IMG/VR virus record: IMGVR_UViG_3300045988_004573
Coordinates: 32,001-96,000 of that record
Length of the DNA: 64,000 nucleotides
DNA from: a virus
Reading direction: 5' to 3' (one strand)
Position numbers and translations under genes: made by a program. The notes below the pieces were generated by a model. That model was not told where the DNA came from, made no database searches, and saw only the letters and a program-made list of their open reading frames with translations. Numbering within the stretch: position 1 is the stretch's first letter; each line of letters opens with the position of its first letter. Shown in pieces: positions 3 to 32,662 of the stretch.

Positions 3-218
3 ATTGGTGAACTCAAAAGGAGGTATAGCAAGATATACATTCTCCTAGACAATGATGAAGCTGGACTGCAAGATGCAGTGAAACTGTCAGAGTCTACTGG
101 GTTCACCAATATAGTATTACCCAAAGTGAATGATGCTAAAGACATCAGTGACTTATACAAATCTCTTCAAGACCCTAATAGGTTTAGGGGTATTATCATG
201 CCCTTATTTAAGGACTAA
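3..218 (+). CDS. 3' end of a gene entering from the left edge; TOPRIM-like fragment, probably the DNA primase C-terminus
   Basis: Frame 3 is open from nt 3 to TAA at 216-218 (IGELKRRYSKIYILLDNDEAGLQDAVKLSE...PLFKD*). A hydrophobic strand followed by DNDEAG resembles the acidic TOPRIM metal-binding motif of DnaG-type primases. It is absent from the ORF track because it has no start in the window. Confidence 0.45.
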   Translation: MGELKRRYSKIYILLDNDEAGLQDAVKLSESTGFTNIVLPKVNDAKDISDLYKSLQDPNRFRGIIMPLFKD

Positions 219-270: not shown

Positions 271-957
271 ATGGAAACTCGTAAAGTAACTATCATCAAT
301 TCCAAGACCCAGAGCCAGAAGGTAATTCAGGACTCTAAGGCTACAACTCTCGGTGAACTCAAACAGGAAATGAGGGAGAGAGGTATTGACTACACAGGCA
401 TGACTTTCTTTGAAGGTCACATGAGAGCTGAACTCAAGGATGATGCAGCTCCTCTGCCTACCAACATCCCCTATAAGGGTCAGGTAGTCAATGACTTGAC
501 ATTCATGTTGACTGCACCTGAGAAGAAGGTTAAGTCTGGTGCTATGTCAAGAGCAGAAGCCTATGCAGAAATCAAGAAGAGAGGCTTGCAGGGTGCTTGT
601 GTGGATAAGTTCGGTAAGAACTTCACACAGTGTTCCACTGCTGACCTCATCTCTCTGATTGAGAAGAACTCTACCAAGGCAGCTCCTGCACCTAAAGCTG
701 AGAAGCCTGTAGAAGTAGCAGCTCCTACTGCTCCTGCAAAGGCAGAGGAAGCTCCTGTAGCACCTGAAACTCCTGCCACTGGATGTAACTGTTCAAAGGC
801 TCTTGCTATCCTCACAGAGGCTCTCTATGAGAATGACACCATTGAGGAGGGGACCTATGATGCAGTCATGGCTACTCTCAAAGGTGGTTCTTACAATGCA
901 CCTGAGAAGATGAACAAGAGGGAGATTGATGAGATGTTTGGCTTTGTTGAAAGATAA
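271..957 (+). CDS. Hypothetical protein with an N-terminal beta-grasp/ubiquitin-like-looking domain, an Ala/Pro-rich linker and a small C-terminal domain
   Basis: 228-aa ATG ORF, followed by its own hairpin plus T-run. Residues 4-90 (KVTIINSKTQSQKVIQDSKATTLGELKQEMRERGIDYTGMTFFEGHMRAELKDDAAPLP...DLTFMLTAPEKKVKSG) follow a strand-strand-helix-strand-strand pattern like ubiquitin. This is followed by a HeH/SAP-like segment and the linker KAAPAPKAEKPVEVAAPTAPAKAEEAPVAPETPA. Confidence 0.75.
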   Translation: METRKVTIINSKTQSQKVIQDSKATTLGELKQEMRERGIDYTGMTFFEGHMRAELKDDAAPLPTNIPYKGQVVNDLTFMLTAPEKKVKSGAMSRAEAYAEIKKRGLQGACVDKFGKNFTQCSTADLISLIEKNSTKAAPAPKAEKPVEVAAPTAPAKAEEAPVAPETPATGCNCSKALAILTEALYENDTIEEGTYDAVMATLKGGSYNAPEKMNKREIDEMFGFVER

Positions 958-976
958 GGTCAGATTGAACAACACA

Positions 977-1017
977 GGTGGAGGGTGAGTAGTATGCTTG
1001 CCCTTCACCTTTTTTTT
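977..1017 (+). terminator. Rho-independent terminator after the 271..957 gene
   Basis: GGTGGAGGG (977-985) pairs with CCCTTCACC (1001-1009), giving 9 bp with one G-U. The loop is 15 nt and is followed by T8 (1010-1017). Confidence 0.7.
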
Positions 1018-1026
1018 ATACACAGT

Positions 1027-2340
1027 ATGAGTGAAGAAGTAACTAATAAGGTAAGGGAGTTATATGACAACATCATGTACTTCCCTAATAAGGTTCTTAG
1101 CATATTCAATGACTTCTTTGGAGAACAGAGAGTGGATATGCAGGGATTCTGGGGCTTTGATGAGTTCCTACGTTCAATGTCTGAGGACAGGCTTAGTTCT
1201 TTCTTCTCCAGTAAGAGTGCTGTACTTAGTAGTCCAGAGTTCAGAAGTGCCAGTAAAGAGAATAAGGCTGTCATAGAAGATATGCTTGATAATGGTGCTT
1301 TGGATAGTGCTGTAACCAGTGATGAAGCACTTGCTACATACTTCCTACCTATAATGTTTACTGCTGTAATGCAGATTATGCCACAAGGCTTCATTCTTGT
1401 GCATTTCCCTCATGTAAGGGTTACTAATGAGAATGACAGGTTTGTGGATATAAACCATCTATGGGTTAAAGTAGGCATAAAGGCAAGTGGTGCAGGCATG
1501 GGTTACTTTGCTGTAAATAGGAGTGAGTATGAACTCTCTCATATGAAGGCAGACTATATGCACAGTCATGTACCAGGAATACCATTTGATAGGCTTACAG
1601 AGTTCAAGTCTCCTTGTCTGGGCAGTGGACCTATCAGAAGTACAGTAGCTACTCTTGCAGTGGAATATGATGAGGCTATATGGCAGTTGTTCTGTCTTGA
1701 ATTGGACAAGTATGTCAGGGTTGAAAGTATCTCTGGAGTACCTTACAGGTATCTGGAGAAGATAGGTACAGGTGGTGGTACAACTAATGGAGAGACTGAC
1801 TTCTCTATGCAGTCTACCACATTCAATGACTACAATACTATATTCTCTAAAGAGGATATGAAGGACTTCGTAAGGCATCTGATAAGAGACAAGAAACTCA
1901 AGTTCAACTTCATCAGAGGAAGCTATGGCTTTGCAATGTCCTACCTTGACTATAGAATACTCATTAGTAATGAGTTCATCAAGTGGTACAACCTGAGATA
2001 TAACTTAGGAACTTCTACTGCAAGTTATAATAACTTAGTTAGTAGGGGAATACTGAAAGAATGTATCATCAACAATGGTAAGATACAGTATTTCAGGAAC
2101 ACAGGGAGAAGTGGTGAGGACTATGGCAGGTATGAGGGTGCTGAGGTGTGTGTATTCAAAGGCAGACCTATCACCATACATATAGTGGATAGTTCTACTG
2201 ATACACTTAATAAAACAGTATTAGTCAGTGCAGGTATTGCTGAGGAAATAGCTAAAGCAGTGCTTACAATAGTAAATTACAAGTATGGAAGAGAACAAAG
2301 AGAAGAAGCTGGAATTAGTACACCAGCAATCTATCTATAA
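1027..2340 (+). CDS. Hypothetical protein; candidate E2/UBC-like fold in its central region
   Basis: The ORF-track start at 985 is a GTG inside the terminator, so the start was re-set to ATG 1027 (MSEEVTNKV). The central region reads as predicted strands (GFILVHFPHVRVTN, FVDINHLWVKVGIKA, GYFAVNRSEY), then YMHSHVPGI, then FKSPCLGSGP followed by a helix. This is reminiscent of the UBC HPN...Cys arrangement, but no motif is decisive. Confidence 0.7.
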   Translation: MSEEVTNKVRELYDNIMYFPNKVLSIFNDFFGEQRVDMQGFWGFDEFLRSMSEDRLSSFFSSKSAVLSSPEFRSASKENKAVIEDMLDNGALDSAVTSDEALATYFLPIMFTAVMQIMPQGFILVHFPHVRVTNENDRFVDINHLWVKVGIKASGAGMGYFAVNRSEYELSHMKADYMHSHVPGIPFDRLTEFKSPCLGSGPIRSTVATLAVEYDEAIWQLFCLELDKYVRVESISGVPYRYLEKIGTGGGTTNGETDFSMQSTTFNDYNTIFSKEDMKDFVRHLIRDKKLKFNFIRGSYGFAMSYLDYRILISNEFIKWYNLRYNLGTSTASYNNLVSRGILKECIINNGKIQYFRNTGRSGEDYGRYEGAEVCVFKGRPITIHIVDSSTDTLNKTVLVSAGIAEEIAKAVLTIVNYKYGREQREEAGISTPAIYL

Positions 2341-2341
2341 G

Positions 2342-3487
2342 ATGGTAATCCCTCAGGAGGTTGAGAAGAAGATAAGACTTCTGTGTAGGGAGATACACAA
2401 TGTGGAATGGTCTGGAGTACTGTTCTACAAGGTAAGTGGTTCATTTGAGGATAAGTCTTTGACAATCACTTGTGTAGACTTGTTCCAGATGGATGAAGGT
2501 ACTGGAGGATATACTGAATATGATATGTCCCCAGATGTCATGGGTTATATGGTAGACCATCCTGAGCTGCTTGATGCAGGTGTATATCAGGGACTTATCC
2601 ATAGTCATAACAACATGGCTACATTCTTTAGTGGTACTGATACAGCTACCTTGCAGTCAGAAGGCAGTGATATGAACCACTTTGTATCACTGATTGTGAA
2701 CAATGCTGGTAAATATACAGCAGGAGTGACTAGGAAGGCTAAGCTCAAACAGACAGTCAATGAGGAGTTCACCTATCCCACATGGGGTGATGAGAGAGTA
2801 TCTGGCAATAGAACCTTTACAGTAGAGAAGGAGTATATCCAATGGTTTAACCTTGACATTGAGATTGAAGGAGTCAGTAATGACTTTGAAGAGGAAATGC
2901 TTGCAAGGATTAAGGAGATTAGGGCAACTAAGTCTAGTAAGAGGAACATTGAGAATGTCAGAAGTCCTTACTATGGCGGAGGCTATAAGAAAGAGGAATA
3001 TGGCAAGCACCCAATAGGTTCTTATGGTAATCCTAAGGGATATACAGTACCTGCTGGACCAGCTAATACTCCTATCAAGAGAGAGGTTAAGCAACCTACA
3101 CTCTTTGATGATACTAATGAGGAGTTTATGATTGACTATGAGAAGTTCAAACTCAATGAGGAGATAGTGGACTGGGTGGTTAAGCAGACCATCACTTGTA
3201 GTGTAATCATTCCTAACTCCAGTAACATTGATGTAGAGAAGTGGGCTAGGTCTATGGATTCTCTGTATAAGAAGAGATTTGCAGATAAGAAGGAGTTTGA
3301 AGCCTTTGCATCAAACTTTGTAGACTTTGTGGTTAACTATACAGAAGACCCAGAGGCTGCTGCTTTCTTGGATGCTACAGAGATGGCTGCTGTATTGGCT
3401 TATCAGGTAAGAGAGAAACTGAACACCCTGCCTAAGAATGAATGGCTGGATGCTTGGATGGAATTGTATGATGATTATATACTGTAA
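2342..3487 (+). CDS. JAB/MPN (JAMM) metallopeptidase-domain protein with a roughly 250-aa uncharacterised C-terminal region
   Basis: The JAMM signature is complete: upstream Glu in HNVEWSGVLFY, then H-S-H-NNMATFF-S-GT-D (HxH-x7-S-xx-D) at nt 2600-2641. ATG 2342 lies 1 nt after the upstream stop; the track start at 2285 overlaps the previous gene. Confidence 0.85.
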   Translation: MVIPQEVEKKIRLLCREIHNVEWSGVLFYKVSGSFEDKSLTITCVDLFQMDEGTGGYTEYDMSPDVMGYMVDHPELLDAGVYQGLIHSHNNMATFFSGTDTATLQSEGSDMNHFVSLIVNNAGKYTAGVTRKAKLKQTVNEEFTYPTWGDERVSGNRTFTVEKEYIQWFNLDIEIEGVSNDFEEEMLARIKEIRATKSSKRNIENVRSPYYGGGYKKEEYGKHPIGSYGNPKGYTVPAGPANTPIKREVKQPTLFDDTNEEFMIDYEKFKLNEEIVDWVVKQTITCSVIIPNSSNIDVEKWARSMDSLYKKRFADKKEFEAFASNFVDFVVNYTEDPEAAAFLDATEMAAVLAYQVREKLNTLPKNEWLDAWMELYDDYIL

Positions 3488-3489
3488 GT

Positions 3490-4662
3490 ATGGAAGATAT
3501 AGTAAGTGAAGTAACTGCTCAGGCTCTTAATCAGTTAGCTGATAGAAGCGTAGAGCAGGCTCGTCAAGAGTTTGAAAGAGCTATGGAGGAAGATACCAAT
3601 GCACTTCCTATCAATGCCTTTGGTGGAACTCTGTCTCCTGTAGGTTCTGCTGGAGAGTTACACTATATATGTACTCTTCTTAGAGACCATAGGGCAGAGC
3701 TGTCAGTTGATGAATTGATAGATAGAGACAATCTTGTCTATAATGTGCAGATAAATGAGGAGAATGGTCAGCACCATGACTATTGGGTCAATGACTATTG
3801 GCACAATCAGTTACTCATAGCTGCTGGAGTTATGGATGAGGTAATGCCTGAGGAGGCTCAGTTGAGTCCAGAAGAGGAAGCAATGTTAGCAGCAGCATTG
3901 GAGAGTGAGCATCAAGAGATACCTGTAAATTCACAGACAATCACTGTAGATGAGACTACAAGTAGATTCAGTGGTGCTATATGGTATGAGCAAATACAAC
4001 AGCAGACTGTCACTTTGGCAGGTGTTGGAGGTATTGGCAGTTATGTAGGTTTCCTGTTAGGTAGATTGAAGCCTCAGAGACTTATCATATATGACCCTGA
4101 CAGGGTTGAGACTGTCAATATGTCAGGTCAGTTGTATGGTCAGACAGATGTTGGTAATTATAAGAGTTTAGCCCTTGCCAATATGGTCAGAAACTATGCT
4201 AACTATAACAATATAGTGGCATTGAATGACAGGTTTGAGGCTAACTCTGAGGCTACTGACATTATGATATGTGGCTTTGACAATATGACAGCCAGAAGGA
4301 CATTCTATGAGAAGTGGAAGCAGAAGGTACTGTCCTATCCTGCTGGTAGTGATAACAGGAAGAAGTGTTTGTTCATAGATGGAAGATTGGCAGCAGAAGA
4401 GTTCCAAGTACTGTCCATTCAAGGAGATGATGAAAGAGCTATGGTGGAGTATGAGGATAAGTGGCTGTTCAGTGATGCAGAAGCTGAGGAGACTATATGC
4501 TCCTATAAGCAGACTACTTTCATGGCTAACATGATAGCATCAGTGATGGTCAATGTCTTTGTGAACTTCGTGGCTAACCAGTGTGGTCCTATCATAGACA
4601 GGGATGTTCCTTTCTTCATATCCTATGATGCAAGTACAATGTTTACTAAAGTTGAAATGTAA
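3490..4662 (+). CDS. ThiF/MoeB/E1-like adenylyltransferase-domain protein with a roughly 160-aa unknown N-terminal region
   Basis: Rossmann loop LAGVGGIGSYVG (GVGGIG at nt 4021-4038). Also IIYDPDRVETVNMSGQLY (D-x-D-x-V-x3-N-x-x-x-Q of E1/ThiF, with the usual Arg replaced by Gly), GNYKSLALA, CGFDNMTARRTF (DN...R) and a downstream Cys in ETICSYKQTTF. The start lies 2 nt after the JAB stop. Confidence 0.85.
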   Translation: MEDIVSEVTAQALNQLADRSVEQARQEFERAMEEDTNALPINAFGGTLSPVGSAGELHYICTLLRDHRAELSVDELIDRDNLVYNVQINEENGQHHDYWVNDYWHNQLLIAAGVMDEVMPEEAQLSPEEEAMLAAALESEHQEIPVNSQTITVDETTSRFSGAIWYEQIQQQTVTLAGVGGIGSYVGFLLGRLKPQRLIIYDPDRVETVNMSGQLYGQTDVGNYKSLALANMVRNYANYNNIVALNDRFEANSEATDIMICGFDNMTARRTFYEKWKQKVLSYPAGSDNRKKCLFIDGRLAAEEFQVLSIQGDDERAMVEYEDKWLFSDAEAEETICSYKQTTFMANMIASVMVNVFVNFVANQCGPIIDRDVPFFISYDASTMFTKVEM

Positions 4663-5462
4663 TGCAAAGAGTGAGTAGTAGAATGAGTTATACTATTGAG
4701 CATATGTATAACTCAAGGGGAGATATAGCTCCCTATAGCAGTCCAGATGCTAGACTAGTCAATTACTCTATGCACACTGTGTTCCCATCATTCTTTAGGG
4801 TTTCCTTACAAGGAGATAAGATTGAGCTTCCTATATTTGCCAAGGAGTATGTGCAAGGCAAGCTCCTTGAAAGGTTGGAAAATAGAGGAAACCCTATGAG
4901 AAGAAGTGACATTATCATACACTTCCACATTGTAGAGAGTAACTATGCTCCCTATAGGACAGCAGATGCTTTAATCAGGAATCTGGTGGAGTTCAACTCC
5001 AGTAGAAGAGGTATGTATCTAACTGCCAGTACCAATAAAGGAGAGACATATCATGGATGTAATGGTACTATATTCAATAAGGATATGGTTCCACTTATTT
5101 TCAATGTCATAGAATGTGAGATTGTGGATAATACTCTTGTATATAAGAGAGTCAAGAGTTACATACATCCATCAGTATTCTATTCTGATGGTACTGTGGA
5201 GAAGTGTATAGCCAACAAGATTATCCCATTTGTCATGCAGAATGGTATAGAGATAAGACCCTATGACTCAAGGGTAGTTGATAACATCAGCTATGTGGGT
5301 ACAGGAAGAATCAGGAAGACTATACCAGAACTGTCAGTTGCCAATGTAGCTGACAGGTTCTTCTGTAAGCCTATTCTTCCCAGTGTGGCATATAGTGATG
5401 ATGACATCAATGATATGCTGAACAGGAACATTGATGATGTATTCAATATCATTGGGTTATGA
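4662..5462 (+). CDS. Hypothetical protein, the last unknown member of the JAB/E1 cassette
   Basis: 266-aa ORF. Its ATG overlaps the E1-like stop (TAATG), and its stop overlaps the UDG start (ATGA). No motif recognised. Confidence 0.7.
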   Translation: MQRVSSRMSYTIEHMYNSRGDIAPYSSPDARLVNYSMHTVFPSFFRVSLQGDKIELPIFAKEYVQGKLLERLENRGNPMRRSDIIIHFHIVESNYAPYRTADALIRNLVEFNSSRRGMYLTASTNKGETYHGCNGTIFNKDMVPLIFNVIECEIVDNTLVYKRVKSYIHPSVFYSDGTVEKCIANKIIPFVMQNGIEIRPYDSRVVDNISYVGTGRIRKTIPELSVANVADRFFCKPILPSVAYSDDDINDMLNRNIDDVFNIIGL

Positions 5463-6169
5463 CACTTGAGGAATACTTTGGTGATTGGCTTAGAGTGATT
5501 GACAGAGCAGAGTTGGATAAGGTATTGACACTCCTTAACAGGATGTATAGGGTAAAACCTATATGTCCTGCACAGGAGAATGTATTCAAGGCATTCAACT
5601 TGTGTAAGTACCGTGACTGTAAGGTGGTATTCATAGGTCAAGACCCATACCCTCAGAAGGGTGTGGCTACTGGCATATTGTTTGGGAATGATGCAAGTAC
5701 TAGAGAAGATGACTGGTCTCCTTCATTAAAAATTGTTAGAGATTCAGTTATAGACTTGCGCAGACCACATAATTTGATTACCTTTGACCCCACCTTAGAG
5801 TCATGGGCTAAGCAAGGCATCCTTATGATTAACTCTGCTTTGACCGCGGAGATGAATAAGGTAGGCTCACACACTATGTTGTGGAGACCTTTCATCTCAA
5901 AGCTGCTAAAGAAGATGTCTGAGTATGACACTGGTATGATATATGTGTTGTTTGGTGGTACTGCCCGTACCTTCAAGCCATATATAGGAAAGTATAATGA
6001 TGTGATAGAGATAGAGCATCCTGCATGCTTTGCAAGAATCAACCAAGACATGCCCTCAGATATATTCTATGAGATTAACAAACTATTAAAAGCAAGGTAT
6101 AACACCACTATTAAATGGTATGATGAGGAACAGTGCAATGGAGATATGGAAGAGTATAACAGGCTATGA
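5459..6169 (+). CDS. ung: Uracil-DNA glycosylase, family 1-like
   Basis: VVFIGQDPYP (water-activating GQDPYH-type motif), KQGILMINSALTAEMNKVGSH (compare UNG QGVLLLNxVLTV...SH) and IEHPACF (HPSP-like). Confidence 0.8.
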   Translation: MTLEEYFGDWLRVIDRAELDKVLTLLNRMYRVKPICPAQENVFKAFNLCKYRDCKVVFIGQDPYPQKGVATGILFGNDASTREDDWSPSLKIVRDSVIDLRRPHNLITFDPTLESWAKQGILMINSALTAEMNKVGSHTMLWRPFISKLLKKMSEYDTGMIYVLFGGTARTFKPYIGKYNDVIEIEHPACFARINQDMPSDIFYEINKLLKARYNTTIKWYDEEQCNGDMEEYNRL

Positions 6170-6635
6170 TAACTTATATGAAGTAAGTAACCTTGGTAGA
6201 GTAAAGTCTCTTAAGAGAGTACCTAATACTATCTTGAAACCGTCTAGTAATGGTAGGTATTTGCAACTAGTACTGCACAAGGATGGCAGTAAGAGTAAGA
6301 AATACATACACAGACTAGTGGCAGAGGCTTTTATATCTAACCCTTATGGCTTTTCAGAGGTAAATCATAAGGATGAGGACAAAACCAACAATAATGTATC
6401 TAACTTGGAATGGTGTGATAGCACATACAATAACACATATAATCAGAGACATATCAAATCAAGAGAGTCTTTGAAGAAACCAATTATAGTTAGAGATATT
6501 AGTGGGGAGATTATAGCGGAGTATTCTTCAATATCCCAAGCATCTATTGCTCTTAATATGGACAAGAGCAATATATCAAAATGCTGTAGAGGTGTTATGT
6601 GTTCCTATAAAAGTTTAACATTTTCCTATAAATAG
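6138..6635 (+). CDS. HNH homing endonuclease (NUMOD4-like N-terminus, HNH core, C-terminal helix-turn-helix-like module)
   Basis: WKSITGYDNLYEVSNLGRVKSL, then HRLVAEAF...VNHKDEDKTNNNVSNLEW (HNH-N), and a C-terminal YSSISQASIALNMDKSNISKCCRG. The start was re-set to the internal ATG 6138 (MEIWK), because the track start at 6120 overlaps UDG. Confidence 0.8.
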   Translation: MEIWKSITGYDNLYEVSNLGRVKSLKRVPNTILKPSSNGRYLQLVLHKDGSKSKKYIHRLVAEAFISNPYGFSEVNHKDEDKTNNNVSNLEWCDSTYNNTYNQRHIKSRESLKKPIIVRDISGEIIAEYSSISQASIALNMDKSNISKCCRGVMCSYKSLTFSYK

Positions 6636-8899: not shown

Positions 8900-11052
8900 A
8901 AGTAGTTAAGAGAGACGGAAGTATTGAGGACTTTAATGTCCAGAAGGTAGTCAATGCAGTCCAGAAGGCATTTGCATCAGTAGGGTGTGAGCTACCTGAG
9001 TATCTGAACACAATGATACCTGCCTTATTTGAAGAGGGAGATGTCATTGGTGTAGAGGATATACAGGATAGAGTAGAGCAACTACTGATGAATGACAAGC
9101 ACTTCAAGGCTGCTAAGTCATATATCCTGTATAGAGAGAAGCACAAGCAGGCTAGGTTTATCAAGGAGAGGATTGACTATATGGATAAGTACAGTCAGTC
9201 CAATGAGAATGCAGCCACTTCATCAGAGACAGATGCCAATGCAAATGTCACTATGAAGAATGTAGCTAACCTTGAGGGAGAGGTCTATAAGACCACTAAT
9301 AGAGTAGTGCAGAGACAAAGGATGAAGGATGAGCTGAATAAGTTATATCCAGAGGTAGCCAAGCAGTATGAGGAGGATTTGAACCATCATATCATATACA
9401 CACATGATGAGGCTACTACTCCTGTGTTGAAGCAGTATTGTATGGCAGTCTCACTATATCCTCTTATGACAGAGGGTGTAGGTAATATAGATGGAATAAC
9501 TCCTTCTGCTCCTAATGACCTACAGTCATTCAGTGGGCAAATCACCAATCTTATATTCTTACTCTCATCACAGTGTAAGGGTGCAGTTGCAGTAGGTGAA
9601 TACTTTATTGCACTGAACTATTATATTGTGCAGGAGTTTGGTACTAACTGGTATGAGAAGCTGGATGTAGTAACTGCCACAGAGCATTGCAGTAAGCAGA
9701 GAACTGTAAGGGATGCTATCTATAAGGCATTCAAGCAGTTCATCTATGGTGTAAATCAACCTGCTGGTAATAGGTCTTATCAGAGTCCATTCACCAATGT
9801 GTCATACTATGACCATACCTACTTCAACTCTTTGTTCAGTGACTTCTGCTATCCTGATGGTACTAAACCACAGTGGGAAGCTATAGACTGCCTGCAAAGA
9901 CTGTTTATGAAGTTCTTCAATAAGCTGAGAACCAAGCAGATACTTACCTTCCCTGTAGAAACTATGGCTATGGTGTATGACCCTAAGACCAATGATATTA
10001 TAGATAAGGACTATAAGGACTTCACTGCTGAGATGTATGCAGAAGGTCATAGCTTCTTCACCTATATATCAGATAGTGCTGATAGTCTTGCATCATGTTG
10101 TAGATTGAGGAATGAGCTTGCAGAGAATACTTTCAATCCTACATCAGGTCTTACTGGTGTAATGACTGGTAGCTGTAATGTTATCACTCTTAACATCAAT
10201 AGGATTGTACAGGACTGGTTCAAGTCTATAGGAGGTGTTTATCCTATGGATAGATTATCTACTGACTTTAAGTCTTATCTTACATCTATACTTGAAAGAG
10301 TCTATAAGTATCACATTGCCTTCAAGACAATGCTGTATGACCTTGAGGATAGAGGTATGTTTGCTGCTTCTAATGGTGGATATATCAGAGTATCAAAGCT
10401 ATACAGTACCATAGGTATCAATGGCTTGAATGAAGCTGCTAGGTTCTTGTGTCTTGAGGTATCTAACAATAAGGACTATATTGAGTTCTTGCAGTTGGTT
10501 CTTGGTACTATTAAGGAACAGAACAAGTTACACTCTATCCATGACAGGAAGAGACCATTCCTGTTCAATTCTGAGGTAGTTCCTGCTGAGGGATTAGGTG
10601 GTAAGAACTATAGATGGGATAAGGAAGATGGATATGTAGTTCCAGAAGATGAGAATCTGTATAACTCATACTTCTATAATGCACATGATGATACCTCGGT
10701 GCTTGATAAGTTCATACTTCATGGAAGGCAGACTTACCAATATACTGATGGAGGTTCAGCAGCTCATATCAATCTTGAAGACCATCTGAGTAAAGAGCAG
10801 TATCTCAAGTTGATAGACTTTGCCATAGTCAATGGAACTAATTACTTCACATTTAATATTCCTAATAGTAAGTGTGATGAATGTGGTTACATTACTAAGC
10901 ATCCTATCACTGAGTGTCCTAAGTGCCATAGTAAGAACATTACCCAATATACCAGAGTGATAGGTTATCTCAGACCTATCAAGTCATTTGGTAAGGATAG
11001 ACAAATAGAAGCTAACAAAAGAGTTTACAGTAAGGATGTTGAAGTATGTTGA
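8893..11052 (+). CDS. nrdD: Anaerobic (class III) ribonucleoside-triphosphate reductase
   Basis: N-terminal ATP-cone (MLKVVKRDGSIEDFNVQKVVNAV), ASCCRLRN active-site motif, C-terminal zinc ribbon CDECGY...CPKCHS, and the glycyl-radical motif RVIGY at nt 10954-10968. Confidence 0.9.
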   Translation: MLKVVKRDGSIEDFNVQKVVNAVQKAFASVGCELPEYLNTMIPALFEEGDVIGVEDIQDRVEQLLMNDKHFKAAKSYILYREKHKQARFIKERIDYMDKYSQSNENAATSSETDANANVTMKNVANLEGEVYKTTNRVVQRQRMKDELNKLYPEVAKQYEEDLNHHIIYTHDEATTPVLKQYCMAVSLYPLMTEGVGNIDGITPSAPNDLQSFSGQITNLIFLLSSQCKGAVAVGEYFIALNYYIVQEFGTNWYEKLDVVTATEHCSKQRTVRDAIYKAFKQFIYGVNQPAGNRSYQSPFTNVSYYDHTYFNSLFSDFCYPDGTKPQWEAIDCLQRLFMKFFNKLRTKQILTFPVETMAMVYDPKTNDIIDKDYKDFTAEMYAEGHSFFTYISDSADSLASCCRLRNELAENTFNPTSGLTGVMTGSCNVITLNINRIVQDWFKSIGGVYPMDRLSTDFKSYLTSILERVYKYHIAFKTMLYDLEDRGMFAASNGGYIRVSKLYSTIGINGLNEAARFLCLEVSNNKDYIEFLQLVLGTIKEQNKLHSIHDRKRPFLFNSEVVPAEGLGGKNYRWDKEDGYVVPEDENLYNSYFYNAHDDTSVLDKFILHGRQTYQYTDGGSAAHINLEDHLSKEQYLKLIDFAIVNGTNYFTFNIPNSKCDECGYITKHPITECPKCHSKNITQYTRVIGYLRPIKSFGKDRQIEANKRVYSKDVEVC

Positions 11053-12736: not shown

Positions 12737-14857
12737 TGGATGAGTGGTTTGAAGAAGGAAAGCATGAAGCTATCAAGTACTATGGTGAGCAGATATACTA
12801 TGTGTCTGGAGTTGCAAACTTATTTAGTGATGCAGAGATAGGATGTCCTTATAAGAATATATCAGTAAGGGAATCACTGGAGCTTCTCAGTACACTAAAG
12901 GTTGTAGGATTGGATAGTGAGACTAGAGGTACAGAGATATGGCAAGGTCAGCTGCTGTTACTTCAATTAGGTAACAAGCACTTTCAAGTAGTCATTGACT
13001 GTACCACTGTAGATGTCAAGCTATACAAGGAGTTCCTTGAGAGTGATAGGCTTTTCATAATTCATAATGCCAAGTTTGACCTAAGATGGTTATATAAGGA
13101 GGGTATTGTAATCAGAAATGTATTTGATACTTTCCTTGCAGAGAAGATACTGTTCCTGGGATTTCCACCAGGAATAGTGTCACTCAGCTTGCAGGCTTGT
13201 TGTGACAGGTATCTTAATGTCTACCTTGACAAGACAGTCAGAGGTAAGATTAACTATGGTGTCACTGATGAGGTAATAATCTATTCAGCCAATGATGTTG
13301 TGTTCCTTGAAGATGTCATGGAAGCACAGTTAAAGCAGATAGAGGCTAGAGGTCAGAGAGTCGCCTTAGAGATAGAGAACAGGTTTGTGAGAGTATTGGC
13401 TTATATTGAGTTCTGTGGTATAAGGCTTGACATTGAAAGGTGGAAAGCCAAGATGGTTAAGGATGCTGAAAGGCTGAGAGTAGCAGAGCAGAAACTCAAT
13501 GATTGGGTTGTAGAGTATGTGATGTCCAAAGGAGACACAGATGCTATAGCCTATGATGTTCAGACTAAGAGAGGAAAGGTAAAGAGAGCTAAGGGTACTA
13601 TAGGTAAGTATGTAGCTATAGACCCACAGCAGAACCTCTTTGAGGAGAACAAGCCAAGATGTATCATCAACTGGAACAGTAACAAGCAGGTTATACCATT
13701 GTTTGAGGAGTTAGGGTTCAATGTATGGGCTAAAGACAAGAAGACTGGAAAGATGAAGAAGTCAGTAGACTCAAAGCTGCTTAAACAGCAGTTGGATAAG
13801 AGTCCTCTGGCTAAGTTATATCTTGATTACTCTGGTGAGTTCAAGGTAGTTACTTCATTTGGTCAGAACTTCTTGGATGCAGTCAATCCTGTTACAGGGA
13901 GAATACACCCTACATTCAATCAGATGATGGACACTGGCAGGTTGAGTTGTGGTAAAGGAGGAAAGAAAGGTGGAGGTAAGACTAAGGATGATGACTTTGC
14001 TGAGGAAGAGCAGACTGAGCAGGATGCTGATGTTATCATAGCAGTAGATAAGAGTGTGAATGTTCAGCAGTTGCCATCTGATGCAGAGACTAGAGCTTGC
14101 TTCATACCTGATAAAGACCACATGCTAGTTGATTGTGATTATGGAGACCAAGAAGGTCATGTCTTTACTGAGTTAAGTCAGGATAAGGCATGGATTGATT
14201 TCTATAATGACCCCAATGAGAGAGATGGTCACTCCTTTGTAGCCAAGATGATATTCTCTGATGAGCTAAAGGATATACCAGAGAAGGAAGTAAAGAAGAA
14301 GAGGAAAGACTTGAGGGATGCTGCAAAGCCAGCAAGGTTTACCTTTAATTATAATGGGACAGCCAATGCCTTAGCAGCTAACACAGGTAAGTCTCTTGAG
14401 TTCTGTGAGTTGTGCTTTAAGAAGTACTTCTCAGCATTCAAAGGTATAGCCAGCTACTTTAGAGTGAGTAAGGCTAATATGTGGAAAAGAGGTTATATCC
14501 TAATCTCAAAGTACACTGGACTGAGGGCTTACATCTATGACTATCCTATACTGAAAGGCATAGAGAGAAGAATCAAGAGAATGGGTCAGGAGTTCTGGGA
14601 TTCCTATAGGAAAGCCAGAGACTCTGGTCAAGTCATTGATGATGTCCCTGCTGTGGTTCTTCAACAGATGGCAAGGAAGTTTGCCAATGGAGAACCTATG
14701 GAGGCTATTGCTATAAGGTATGAGTATAAGGTCAAGAAGGGTAAGAAGATTGAGACAAAGTATATTGATATTAACAGGGAAACTGTATTGATTAAACTCT
14801 GGAAGCATCTGGCAAAGAGAAGGTCATCATCTGAGAACCAGTCCTGTAACTATCCCT
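12736..14857 (+). CDS. polA: Family A DNA polymerase with 3'-5' exonuclease, exon 1 (predicted 5' splice site after T14857)
   Basis: Exo I VVGLDSET, Exo II IHNAKFDLRWL, Exo III YSANDVVFL, motif A LVDCDYGDQEGH and motif B RDAAKPARFTFNYNG. The conserved N-x-P-x-QGTAAD block is cut after SCNYP, and the frame then ends in the non-conserved tail LIVGAYSGDII*. Confidence 0.85.
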
Positions 14858-31500: not shown

Positions 31501-32609
31501 AGAGGTTCAATGTTCAGAACAACCTAGATACTGAGACTAGAAACTGGAGTACTAGAGAAAGCAGACTCACTAGGCTTAACCCATTTGGTAATAACCTAAT
31601 GTTGCCCTATAAGAGTGGAGACCATTATATGCAGTCTATGTCCTACTTGGCAGCAGCTAACCATTATAAGTTCTTAGACACTAATGGAGAGACTATATCA
31701 CTATGGGATGCCCTAGAAGTGAAGAACATAGATGATAGTAACCCTAAAGCTGGTAGGACATTAGAGCTTAAAGAAGGAGTACTATATATAGACCCTGAAA
31801 CTAACCAGACTAGAGAATGGAATCTTGATGATGAGGTTAAATTCCAGAACCTATGTAGAGAGACCAACAATAGAATGCACGGTATCTATAACAGAATGGA
31901 TAAGACAGCCTTCCATAACACTTGGTATGGTCAAGCTGCTTTAGCCATGAGAGGTTATGCACTTGGTCTATTATATAGAAGATTCTCTTCTAACCACTAC
32001 AGTGTGTCTTTAGGTAGAGAGTCCGAGGGAAGCTTAGTTACAGCATCAAAGGTATTTGTCAATATGTTTGGAGGTACTAAGAACTTCATTCCATCCCTCA
32101 GAGCATTGCTATGCCCCTTTGGTGATAGTGTAAAGAACTCATTACTTGAGATGGGCTTCTCAGTGGAGCAGTATAGGAATATGAGAAGAAACTGGGCTGA
32201 CTTTGCTCTTATAGGTATGTTATGGGTACTCAAAGCACTCACAGCTAAGTCTGAGGATGACGATGATGATGACGATGATACAACATCAGGACTCATATAT
32301 TACTTTGCAAGTAGGTTGTACATGGAACAGAATGCCTACAATACTCCTTGGGGTATATGGCAGGAGCAAAAGAGTGTGTTAGACTGGATGCCTAGTGGTG
32401 TATCAGTAGCAGGTCAAATACTTGATATAAGTAGACTTATGATTACTCAAGAGGAGTATAAGACTAGTTCAGCTACCCATGAGAAAGGAGATAAGAAGTG
32501 GGAATATAAGATTGGCTCATATATACCTTACTACAGGAGTACAAGGGTATTAGAGCATCCTTATGAAGCAGCTAAGTCATATGAATATGGTAGAGCTACT
32601 TATAAGTAA
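28503..32609 (+). CDS. Large virion-associated protein co-transcribed with the RNAP, possibly an ejected or cargo protein
   Basis: 1368 aa from ATG 28503 (the track start at 28494 is TTG). Coiled-coil-rich, with a glycine-zipper-like hydrophobic segment (VIGFFGGLASKVFLGGNVAGGMVNVMTGF) and a poly-Asp run at nt 32256-32279. Confidence 0.7.
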   Translation: MAESCVFKPTVRNKEGKEVNSRLFDNLLHFSSNDREFAKKYYFIGTNDEFLRTNARHVEYDENGEITFKSLKNLVSLDISSEKIIDQLNKDISSGEHEYGEAVSLMTSFNNNSPYNDEYMATISTVEGGKANLQVVRKTTANQTALEETLTNKSLFDRIKQAVERVGGSIDFIDESYSKYDTINAKKAESGLYNVIFLSKKGNLTADMAEEAGHFAVGALGNNPLVKRLEALCTPEVQEGILGEHYRDVQGRKNPRRETAGFLVGQYIMNEVDQESTLSRLAGRIVNLAKRMFYRLTLDDVGRMREEAKAIAKNIARGFMSGDNAGSIENALENREVLYSSVDSVPVSSFKDVIQQLNLLASEMSAVDKTLYRKWKDIEANTAIGRLFENPSFFADMAAIDGLSVALTQLADSVPEMIDMLDSVNYNPDEVPANAKKLRQVSLFVQESIAIMGIIDNMLTSDEVQLKEDARDALDKAYKNLSSLIKGADKLEVNLLKKERKLYLSFLKDMYGGEYVERAARVVFNFNKRKLERVAESREYLSKAMESLDRDDNFMNRYIASMANSSDIINQLAYKTKASANKFADDNTIKAWNDIRALEQRVKKAKVDTRRLLEVSARDGKLTGNYISKYNWGDWENDWYEFKNKCKEDFLSDPSIESKTQIEREYLWDVYFRPLAKDWHKSHSTYDQTTQRPMPNDGYRNHNYDRLTDTEKAALDDILELKGSLDDLLIYQSYNGEMVEAAHTHLYRMPQFRGSTQNRIENLKMTNPLGKAVSGAIRQNLINTFTITSEDRDYGSAMTHNTIDEDVFSDRLDFEKEKVKRVPLYGINKLKDMSELSTDIFNGLLQYAAMANTYVATSSVVDILETGRDVLANRRVKGLKREVERDKKSRVFGRYCDFLDAQVYNLYANSRLKFGQIALTKVIGFFGGLASKVFLGGNVAGGMVNVMTGFNEITKEAIAGEVYTLADLTKANALYFKYLPENWLEAGMGVKNNKVSLFMKRFNVQNNLDTETRNWSTRESRLTRLNPFGNNLMLPYKSGDHYMQSMSYLAAANHYKFLDTNGETISLWDALEVKNIDDSNPKAGRTLELKEGVLYIDPETNQTREWNLDDEVKFQNLCRETNNRMHGIYNRMDKTAFHNTWYGQAALAMRGYALGLLYRRFSSNHYSVSLGRESEGSLVTASKVFVNMFGGTKNFIPSLRALLCPFGDSVKNSLLEMGFSVEQYRNMRRNWADFALIGMLWVLKALTAKSEDDDDDDDDTTSGLIYYFASRLYMEQNAYNTPWGIWQEQKSVLDWMPSGVSVAGQILDISRLMITQEEYKTSSATHEKGDKKWEYKIGSYIPYYRSTRVLEHPYEAAKSYEYGRATYK

Positions 32610-32625
32610 TCCCTATAAAACAGTA

Positions 32626-32662
32626 AAGGCAAGAGAGGTTATCCTCCCTTGCCTTTTTTTTT
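32626..32662. terminator. Bidirectional rho-independent terminator between the convergent gene blocks
   Basis: AAGGCAAGAGAGG (32626-38) pairs with CCTCCCTTGCCTT (32643-55), giving 13 bp with one mismatch and loop TTAT. T9 follows on the + strand, and a T-rich tract follows on the - strand. Confidence 0.75.

Follow-up and report, generated by a model that had tools for sequence, protein, structure and literature searches.

The leftmost 6.2 kb of the 64-kb window of viral DNA that we analysed (positions 32,001 to 96,000 of IMG/VR record IMGVR_UViG_3300045988_004573; all coordinates count from the first nucleotide of this window) carry, on the plus strand, a cassette of five genes: open reading frame 1 (ORF1), encoding a predicted ubiquitin-like protein (Ubl), ORF2, a gene for a JAB peptidase of the JAMM family, one for an E1-like adenylating enzyme, and ORF5. 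A gene for a uracil-DNA glycosylase (UDG) follows (Table 1). An initial annotation, made from the sequence alone, had read these genes as a phage-encoded ubiquitin-like conjugation cassette that is translationally coupled into UDG. All six ORFs that it listed are present as given, and when we re-read the junctions we found them as reported: TAA-G-ATG between ORF2 and the ATG at 2342, TAA-GT-ATG at 3487/3490, TAATG at 4660-4664 and ATGA at 5459-5462, the last being an overlap that couples UDG to ORF5. The genes from ORF2 to UDG overlap or almost touch, and for these the coupled block stands; ORF1 does not belong to it, since the 69-nt spacer between ORF1 and ORF2 holds a terminator-like hairpin followed by a run of T residues.

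Table 1. Features of the cassette region, with positions in nucleotides (nt) of the window and residues in amino acids (aa).
Feature	Position	Strand	Remarks
Toprim DNA primase, C-terminal end	3..215	+	gene extends past the left window edge; frame-3 translation ends ...YILLDNDEAG...PLFKD*
ORF1, putative pro-Ubl, 228 aa	271..957	+	N-terminal beta-grasp, Gly90 tail, variable C-terminal extension; homologue of crAss001 gp79
Predicted Ubl beta-grasp domain and flexible tail, aa 1-90	271..540	+	AlphaFold2 model, Foldseek
Ubl tail motif KKVKSG	523..540	+	Gly90 is the predicted mature C-terminus and predicted JAB cut site
ORF1 variable C-terminal extension	541..957	+	short helices, Pro/Ala/Glu linker, acidic-aromatic end
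Terminator-like hairpin, then T8	976..1018	+	16 pairs, loop of 3; between Ubl gene and ORF2
ORF2, 437 aa	1027..2340	+	phage-restricted core member; homologue of crAss001 gp78
ORF2 conserved His/Cys centre	1555..1632	+	YMHSH 1555-1569; PCLGSGP 1612-1632; Cys197 at 1615-1617
JAMM/MPN+ (JAB) metallopeptidase	2285..3487	+	probable start 2285 (initial annotation: 2342); C-terminal domain of ~190 aa; homologue of crAss001 gp77
E1-superfamily adenylating enzyme	3490..4662	+	N-terminal extension aa 1-149; Rossmann domain aa 150-390 (nt 3937-4659); Cys337 nt 4498-4500; homologue of crAss001 gp76
ORF5, 266 aa	4662..5462	+	accessory fast-evolving orphan; homologue of crAss001 gp75
Family-1 uracil-DNA glycosylase (UDG)	5459..6169	+	NCBIfam ung 9e-40 (below cut-off); Pfam UDG 1.4e-9

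Structure prediction identifies ORF1 as a ubiquitin-like protein with a beta-grasp fold. In an AlphaFold2 (AF2) model built on an alignment of 83 homologues, residues 1-80 reach block-mean predicted local distance difference test (pLDDT) values of 89-94 and show the topology beta-beta-alpha-beta-beta...beta, with strands at 4-10, 15-22, 45-48, 53-55, 66-68, 71-73 and 76-81 and a helix at 27-36. When the model was compared with the PDB using Foldseek, nearly all of the best 50 matches were ubiquitin-like folds or proteins containing one, including DIX, SUMO1, UBX, B. fragilis ubiquitin and ubiquitin itself; the domain-sized matches had probabilities of 0.9-1.0, target-normalised template modelling (TM) scores of 0.5-0.7 and E-values of 2e-3 to 9e-3. 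Sequence profiles did not recognise ORF1 as a Ubl, either against the PDB or by hhalign against ubiquitin and PRTRC_C, and structure prediction alone succeeded.

We give more weight to the comparison of homologues than to the fold match. Among the IMG/VR contigs we found ~350 with the E1 gene, of which 160 were surveyed with iterated hidden Markov models (HMMs), and the tallies given below were made over 90 gut-type and 80 diverse, environmental loci. In the AF2 model the KKVKSG motif falls in a less ordered stretch of ORF1 (residues 82-93). The dipeptide 'SG' stood at this tail position in all 88 gut-type loci and K-x-K-[S/A/N]-G in all 74 diverse loci with a detected Ubl, so that the flexible tail ending in Gly that marks Ubl modifiers, exposed directly or after trimming, is present throughout (88 + 74 loci). 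In Flavobacterium phage FpV4 the tail reads KSGG. What follows the Gly is anything but constant: the first few residues differ in number and identity across gut-type loci (A, AVA, ATT, AIV and others), and the stretch beyond Gly comprises ~135 residues in the window and up to ~250 elsewhere. Three loci (L122, L124 and L134) have natively stand-alone Ubl genes of 77-82 aa, directly before ORF2, with 1-5 aa after SG; being free of any endonuclease, these genes show independently that the extension is dispensable. Taken as a whole, stand-alone versions of the Ubl measure 77-92 aa and end at KSG plus 1-5 aa.

In the window, this extension begins with helices at residues 94-104, 107-114 and 123-135 (aa 94-135, nt 544-666), continues as a low-complexity, disordered Pro/Ala/Glu linker (pLDDT below 50 for residues 137-172) and finishes in a short helical end, EIDEMFGFVER (nt 922-954); it had no Pfam match. 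By its sequence this end, EI[DN][DEK]MF.F in the closest relatives, may be likened to the partner-binding C-terminal tip of bacterial single-stranded DNA-binding protein (SSB). In P0352 a BRCT domain replaces the usual extension: this metagenomic protein (L010, 1419-1916, on a 1.9-kb contig, ENA ERZ28612945) keeps an ...IASG tail and the first following helix, after which BRCT (PF00533, PF12738) begins. In cr106_1 and in locus L009, the extension has its own gene behind an HNH endonuclease. A group I intron as the cause of this split was considered and rejected, since Rfam shows no intron where ORF1 meets the HNH gene in L001 or L009, and the split is therefore taken as the insertion of a free-standing endonuclease. 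The window has an HNH homing endonuclease of its own at 6120-6635 on the plus strand (NUMOD4 3e-13, HNH_3 3e-7, NUMOD1). It begins within UDG, sharing the last 50 nt of that gene, and its domain types are those of the endonuclease inserted behind Ser-Gly of the Ubl gene in cr106_1 and L009.

With a constant, basic, Gly-ending tail followed by a dispensable extension, ORF1 looks like a Ubl precursor and would fit one that is trimmed by a JAB enzyme. Ubiquitin, too, is synthesised in fused form and released by a cut behind its final Gly, and JAB enzymes trim the C-terminal extensions of Ubls in QbsD acting on QbsE and in BilC acting on BilA. The proposal of the initial annotation that ORF1 is a candidate Ubl thus finds structure prediction, fold search and conserved Gly-ending tail in agreement.

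The JAB peptidase has the complete JAMM active site already noted in the initial annotation, E ... HxH-x7-S-x2-D, with EWSG at nt 2405-2416 and HSH-x7-S-x2-D, HSHNNMATFFSGTD, at nt 2600-2641. Each of the motif residues is 93-97% conserved among 156 non-identical homologues. The Pfam model Prok-JAB (PF14464) matched with E=3.3e-4 and 21 bits, under its cut-off of 25 bits, and a weak PDB match to RPN11 (E=0.79) gave an alignment that covers the motif; the C-terminal part had no Pfam match. The similarity to the JAMM family is genuine, and too remote for the HMM cut-off.

The gene had been given as 2342..3487, and of this the peptidase identity holds. Its start most likely lies at the ATG at 2285, which gives an overlap of 56 nt with ORF2. 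With this start the protein gains 19 residues (MEENKEKKLELVHQQSIYK) that match up with the annotated N-termini in cr106_1 and crAss001; in these relatives the Met at 2342 corresponds to Leu or Ile. In the overlap (2285-2340) both reading frames are conserved as protein among relatives, the same nucleotides encoding the disordered tail of ORF2, ...GREQREEAGISTPAIYL, and the N-terminus of JAB.

The E1 gene encodes the type of adenylating enzyme that had been proposed. Its motifs are GVGGIGS (4021-4041), DPDRVETVNMSGQ (4093-4131), FDNMTARR (4276-4299) and, around Cys337, ICSYKQT (4495-4515). Pfam ThiF (PF00899) matches residues 166-364 well above its cut-off (E=1.1e-16, 61.1 bits against 28.1), which places the protein in that family. 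When the family profile was run against the PDB, 62 matches at E<=1e-3 were obtained and all were E1-like enzymes, the best solved relatives being UBA5 (3.5e-12), MccB (9e-12) and PaaA, followed by TcdA, MoeB, ThiF, Uba1, Cap2 and BubCD. In 145 E1 sequences, R159 (the N-terminal Arg, or Arg finger), GxGGIGS, D202/D204, N210, Q214, K225, D264-N265..R269 and D297/R299 are at least 96% conserved, and Cys337 (motif C-[ST]-x-K-Q-T) reaches 99%. The Cys that accepts the Ubl lies after the adenylation core in ThiF (C184) and UBA5 (C250), and we take Cys337 to occupy the matching position, directly ahead of the helix lining the tail channel. The N-terminal extension of ~150 residues varies and is missing from FpV4, Dulem virus 41 (Dulem41) and cr111_1. 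We had considered whether it hides an E2 domain; being unconserved and often absent, and having no Pfam match, it does not.

ORF2 was suggested to be an E2-like protein, and here our results go against the initial annotation. Its AF2 model is confident (pLDDT 82.3), yet Foldseek against the PDB gave a best E-value of 0.95 with no UBC/E2 among the 50 matches listed, and Foldseek against BFVD returned its own crAss-like family only. No Pfam, NCBIfam, PADLOC or PDB sequence match was found, the PDB sequence profile was likewise negative, and Pfam Prok-E2/UQ_con found nothing in 32 members of the family plus 7 divergent ones at E<=10. With hhalign, comparisons to UBE2D2 and to unnamed PRTRC proteins were negative or insignificant; against PRTRC_B (Prok-E2_D) the Cys loop of ORF2, PFDRLTEFKSPCLGSG, was repeatedly aligned to the active-site loop PFPNISSNGQVCLGSA, and it was the only part that aligned, at a probability of 0.4%. 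The order of secondary-structure elements (strands 121-169, the YMH strand, the Cys197 loop, two helices) is compatible with UBC but is not evidence for it. Together, these searches do not support ORF2 as an E2. Overall, the case is now firmer than in the initial annotation for the Ubl, the JAB and the E1, and weaker for an E2.

ORF2 is nevertheless a core member of the cassette. It was found as 168 stop-to-stop ORF segments in ~170 loci, in essentially every locus having the E1 gene, and in 155 diverse homologues Y177 (97%), H179 (91%), S180 (98%), H181 (99%), C197 (99%) and G199 (99%) are conserved, E233, S234, G237 and P239 also lying within 91-99%. Among 185,579 species genomes it occurred on three contigs of metagenome-assembled genomes only (L093-L095, labelled Bacilli, Acholeplasmatales and Spirochaetia, one contig being 94 kb long), which are probably mis-binned crAss-like phage contigs. 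Given its core membership, its near-invariant residues and the weak alignment of the Cys loop, we treat ORF2 as a candidate Cys-dependent transfer enzyme, which could have an E2-like role without a UBC fold, rather than filing it as an E2.

The same set of proteins could also serve sulfur transfer. Sulfur carriers that are matured by a JAB enzyme are exemplified by CysO/Mec+/MoeZ, QbsCDE and TtuB/TtuC. Here, the Gly of the Ubl, once adenylated by the E1, would become a thiocarboxylate whose sulfur goes to a small molecule, a nucleotide or a nucleic acid; JAB would do nothing but mature the carrier, and ORF2, by way of its His/Cys centre, would use or relay the sulfur. A Ubl, an E1 and a JAB without an E2 are the make-up of known sulfur-carrier systems (PMC1779556), no UBC fold was found in the cassette, the Cys of ORF2 is near-invariant, and the top NCBIfam matches of the E1 are to models of the ThiS adenylyltransferase ThiF (NF006395, 8.7e-16; TIGR02354, 1.4e-15). 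However, at 58 bits these matches fall far under the cut-offs of 159 and 152 bits, and the solved structures of UBA5 and MccB outscore ThiF and MoeB. Within the cassette we detected no rhodanese domain, cysteine desulfurase, ThiG/ThiH/MoaE or further sulfur-acceptor enzyme, and its tail ends in Ser-Gly where known carriers end in Gly-Gly. We know of no sulfur-containing product in these phages, which we also count against this explanation, and on balance consider it unlikely. The ThiS/ThiF thiamine pathway as such was rejected on the same scores, no ThiS, ThiG or ThiH being found, and the GenBank label 'thiamine biosynthesis protein' for the E1 homologue is a family-level name only.

The cassette is widespread. 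Judged by its proteins, the region is collinear with Steigviridae, for example crAss001 and cr106_1; at the DNA level the window gave only short matches, of roughly 72-80% identity, to GenBank crAss-like phages. The five genes correspond to crAss001 gp79-gp75, and with UDG included the order from the primase side runs gp79-gp74; in crAss001, gp76 is labelled 'thiamine biosynthesis protein, ThiF', gp77 'metalloprotease domain containing protein' and the others 'hypothetical'. The same gene set is present in cr106_1, cr111_1, cr128_1, DAC15, bajarodcaudo virus 1, Dulem virus 41 and FpV4, and tblastn matches to the E1 were also found in DAC17 and the crAssBcn isolates. The order primase, Ubl, hairpin, ORF2, JAB, E1, (ORF5), UDG spans the range from crAss001 to FpV4. 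A survey of crAss-like genomes had been named in the initial annotation as a check, and the genes do co-occur, in order, in both sets of loci: Ubl-ORF2-JAB-E1-ORF5-UDG in 84 of the 90 gut-type loci, and Ubl-ORF2-JAB-E1, with or without ORF5, in ~74 of the 80 diverse ones, the loci without the full order being truncated by contig ends or split by introns. A gene order that recurs in ~170 phage loci is not due to chance. In locus L009 (9608-14099, Logan SRR10499737_90), the JAB and E1 genes each hold a group I intron with a LAGLIDADG endonuclease (Rfam RF00028, 76 and 96 bits, at 10746-10998 and 13219-13473), and the helicase region of this locus also has a LAGLIDADG gene; selfish elements have repeatedly hit the cassette genes.

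In nearly all loci the primase gene lies upstream of the Ubl gene, either directly or with UDG between them. UDG is found downstream of the cassette in gut-type loci and on either side of it in ~64 of the 80 diverse loci, and in FpV4-like phages it stands between the primase and Ubl genes, which indicates that the Ubl keeps company with ORF2 and not with the primase. This bears on a non-covalent explanation, by which the beta-grasp of ORF1 would be an uncleaved adaptor within a DNA- or replisome-binding protein, the E1 would adenylate a peptide, as MccB and PaaA do, or a modified nucleoside, as TcdA does, and JAB would be an ordinary protease. MccB, PaaA and TcdA are indeed among the closest solved relatives of the E1, ORF1 has replisome-style appendages (the short helices, the acidic tail and the BRCT domain of P0352), and the hairpin parts ORF1 from the enzymes. 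Left unexplained are a basic Gly-ending tail that stays constant while the rest shrinks to 1-5 residues, and a Ubl that stays beside ORF2-JAB-E1 when UDG splits it from the primase. A gene for a short MccA-like peptide did not turn up, although no search for one was made. We regard this explanation as very unlikely.

The fifth gene, ORF5, had no Pfam, NCBIfam, PHROG or PADLOC match, and no relatives of it could be detected beyond these phages. Among 1.84 billion representatives searched, it forms 264 clusters (50% identity), of which 150 were listed, nearly all at 204-273 aa; its profile found nothing significant in the PDB (best 0.015, an unrelated glutaredoxin), nor did Pfam on 62 members. 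Its identity to the crAss001 homologue is 33%, compared to 47-64% for the other four proteins, which by this measure makes ORF5 the fastest-evolving member of the cassette. In the diverse loci with full order (80 surveyed) it was detected in 39 and missing from 35.

Fast evolution of this kind is expected in an arms race, and the cassette could be a means of counter-defence or a decoy, its enzymes acting on host Bil, type II CBASS or Bub systems, for instance with JAB stripping host conjugates off phage proteins or the E1 and Ubl titrating host components. Host-side Ubl systems do act against phage, attacking phage proteins or priming cGAS-like enzymes, as described elsewhere (PMC11601603; PMC10097602), and the E1 has weak PADLOC matches to the E1-E2 (Cap2) and BilD models. 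JAB, however, had no PADLOC match to Cap3 or BilC at E<=1, and the cassette sits in a replication module and not in a variable anti-defence island. Moreover, the phages have a Ubl of their own, with the Gly tail in every locus checked and tightly linked to the enzymes in ~160 loci from phages of gut Bacteroides to those of Flavobacterium hosts, which argues for a self-contained pathway. A role in counter-defence seems to us quite improbable.

The hairpin between the Ubl gene and ORF2 has a predicted folding free energy (dG) of -25.7 kcal/mol and a z-score of -3.3. An equivalent hairpin with a T-run, of unrelated stem sequence, occurs at the same junction in crAss001, bajarodcaudo virus, DAC15, cr128_1, cr106_1 and FpV4. 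When we scanned the loci on the basis of energy, with other junctions as controls, it was found in 85 of 88 gut-type and 48 of 74 diverse loci, in contrast to 0/168 at the JAB, 0/170 at the E1 and 1/131 at the ORF5 junction; a scan for perfect stems only had missed most gut-type loci. The simplest reading of these sequences is that the hairpin acts as a partial terminator. Partial termination would yield more Ubl than enzymes, which fits a substrate that is used in stoichiometric amounts.

Taken together, sequence and structure prediction lead us to favour, with a probability of roughly 0.6, a phage-encoded system of Ubl activation and conjugation that would comprise four core genes (Ubl, ORF2, JAB and E1) and the accessory ORF5 and would be expressed with the replication genes. 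What is shown is the fold or family of the Ubl, JAB and E1, that their key residues are conserved, that the region behind Gly90 varies and that the genes are linked; from this we infer the following course, target included. ORF1 would be made as a precursor in which a beta-grasp Ubl is followed by a flexible basic tail ending in Ser89-Gly90 and by the dispensable extension. The JAMM peptidase would cut after Gly90, freeing the Gly carboxylate, and would probably also reverse conjugates. The E1 would then adenylate Gly90 with ATP and the Ubl would move onto Cys337, from which it would reach the amine of a target either directly or via Cys197 of ORF2, the latter filling the role of an E2 without the UBC fold. 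ORF5 may be a specificity or target-side factor, and through the hairpin behind its gene the Ubl would be made in excess of the enzymes. That UDG and primase are constant neighbours, and that ORF1 carries replisome-style appendages, points, by association only, to DNA replication or repair. We put forward only tentatively, and with considerable doubt, the fuller version in which crAss-like phages have a self-contained Ubl conjugation, ORF2 (His181/Cys197) represents a new non-UBC family of conjugating enzymes and the Ubl is placed onto replication or repair proteins during phage DNA synthesis. If phage replication and repair proteins did carry the Ubl, this would be, by analogy, a bacterial-virus counterpart of the control of DNA glycosylases and replisomes by SUMO and ubiquitin, a parallel that we offer just as tentatively.

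Several observations weigh against a conjugation system. The Ubl tail ends in Ser-Gly and not in Gly-Gly, SGG being found in FpV4 alone, and the Foldseek E-values of ORF1 are modest (at least 2e-3), because only 80 of its 228 residues match. No UBC (E2) fold was found among the members of the cassette, and the CxxC zinc motif is absent from the E1. The equivalence of Cys337 to the Cys of UBA5 and ThiF is a manual reading, the alignments made by the tools ending before that region. In addition, the Arg of the N-x-x-R-Q motif is replaced in 98% of the E1 family by a Gly (Gly213, window 4126-4128), to which UBA5 aligns its Arg, and the next Gln is kept. This Arg matters for ATP binding in MoeB, so that the adenylation chemistry could be altered, and judging from the family alignment Gly213 might signal a changed handling of the nucleotide. 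Finally, the hairpin could instead mark ORF1 as part of the transcription unit of the primase.

Among known systems the closest by function is Bil, with a resemblance also to the JAB-assisted sulfur carriers. As in Bil, a Ubl, a second protein, a JAB and an E1 are encoded by separate genes in the same order, and the Ubl has a C-terminal extension that JAB would be expected to remove. The resemblance to BilA-B-C-D that the initial annotation had pointed out thus holds for gene order, and does not extend to identity: among the PADLOC Bil models, ORF1, ORF2 and ORF3 (JAB) had no match to BilA, BilB or BilC, and the match of the E1 to BilD (E=2.2e-5, 21 bits) covers 100 residues of the Rossmann core. 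Bil is encoded by the host, whereas the cassette lies in the replication module of lytic phages; its second protein is not an E2 of UBC fold, its Ubl has a single beta-grasp with a Ser-Gly end, and it has the extra orphan ORF5.

With type II CBASS, the cassette shares the pairing of an E1-type adenylation domain with a JAB, and the E1 profile reached solved Cap2 at 1e-5. In contrast to type II CBASS, however, it has no CD-NTase or effector and no E2-E1 fusion, the E1 extension being variable and often absent, and its substrate would be a dedicated Ubl and not the C-terminus of an enzyme. The PADLOC E1-E2 matches cover the E1 core only and leave the cassette outside type II CBASS. PRTRC systems are likewise found on mobile elements (plasmids, and integrative and conjugative elements), where a small Gly-ending Ubl (PRTRC_C, ...GIKG), a ThiF-family E1 and large uncharacterised partners lie near replication or partition genes; moreover, the Cys loop PCLGSG of ORF2 resembles VCLGSA/MCIGSA of PRTRC_B. 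PRTRC_B, however, is a recognisable Prok-E2_D and ORF2 is not. With the NCBIfam PRTRC models we obtained 38.5 against a cut-off of 144.75 for ThiF and 11.6 against 101.8 for PRTRC_A, with no match to B, C, E or others, and no ParB is encoded nearby. The cassette was rejected as a member of Bil, CBASS, PRTRC or ThiS/ThiF, since it misses the curated cut-offs and lacks the defining partners (UBC E2, CD-NTase, ParB, ThiG/ThiH).

CysO/Mec+/MoeZ and QbsE/QbsD/QbsC also combine a Ubl, an E1 and a JAB without a UBC E2, and the extension that the JAB trims off the C-terminus is short: the last residues are GG-CF in QbsE and SG plus 1-5 aa in the stand-alone phage Ubls. The cassette differs from them in its DNA-replication context as well as in the Ser-Gly tail and the lack of any rhodanese or sulfur-acceptor enzyme found. 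As in the UBA5-UFM1 system, of which UBA5 is the best solved match of the E1, the enzyme is compact, without a separate Cys domain, and UFM1 ends in a single Gly that is exposed by trimming. On the other hand, the alignment with UBA5 covers the N-terminal half of the domain only, the N-x-x-R Arg is a Gly in the phage enzyme, and there is no UFC1-like E2. The only other pairing of a phage-encoded Ubl with a JAB that we found in the literature is that of TAPI and TAPK in lambda and T1, in which TAPI, the Ubl, is fused by a linker to a C-terminal domain, with predicted release at its last Gly, and TAPK combines JAB with NlpC/P60 (PMC1779556). That pair belongs to a tail module without an E1, whereas the cassette has an E1 and lies in a replication module.

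A literature search, outside which subscription-only papers lay, turned up no account of these genes from crAss-like or Flavobacterium phages, and within that scope the cassette is uncharacterised in crAss-like phages, as had been presumed. What is new here is a virus-side Ubl/E1/JAB system in a replication module, with two phage-restricted partner families. Work on prokaryotic Ubl-E1-JAB systems has so far dealt with the metabolism of the host (sulfur carriers) or with its immunity (CBASS, Bil, Bub), and this one is kept by viruses, which range from phages of Flavobacterium to a phage family that is among the most abundant in the human gut. Its presence in cultured, tractable phages (crAss001, DAC15, DAC17, the crAssBcn isolates and FpV4) makes it testable. 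If the Ubl is conjugated, the cassette would be a complete bacteriophage pathway of Ubl activation and conjugation, possibly with a new class of Ubl-transfer enzyme. Even if the Ubl were a sulfur carrier, a widespread misannotation ('thiamine biosynthesis protein', 'metalloprotease domain protein' and three 'hypothetical proteins') would be corrected and roles given to conserved crAss genes.

The cassette lies, as the initial annotation had it, in a crAss-like replication module, which is also one of nucleotide metabolism: the C-terminal end of the primase lies at the left edge of the window, and UDG is followed by the HNH homing endonuclease, a DUF1064 protein, a PD-(D/E)XK exonuclease and the anaerobic ribonucleotide reductase NrdD. 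In crAss001 the replication module consists of middle genes, expressed 10-30 min after infection (PMC8375218), and from its position the cassette presumably shares this timing. No tRNA genes were found in the 64 kb. Near position 32600 of the window the GC skew and the AT skew flip sign and the coding strand switches, the long ORFs of the plus strand stopping at 32609 and those of the minus strand starting at 32661, which forms a convergent junction of two large gene blocks.

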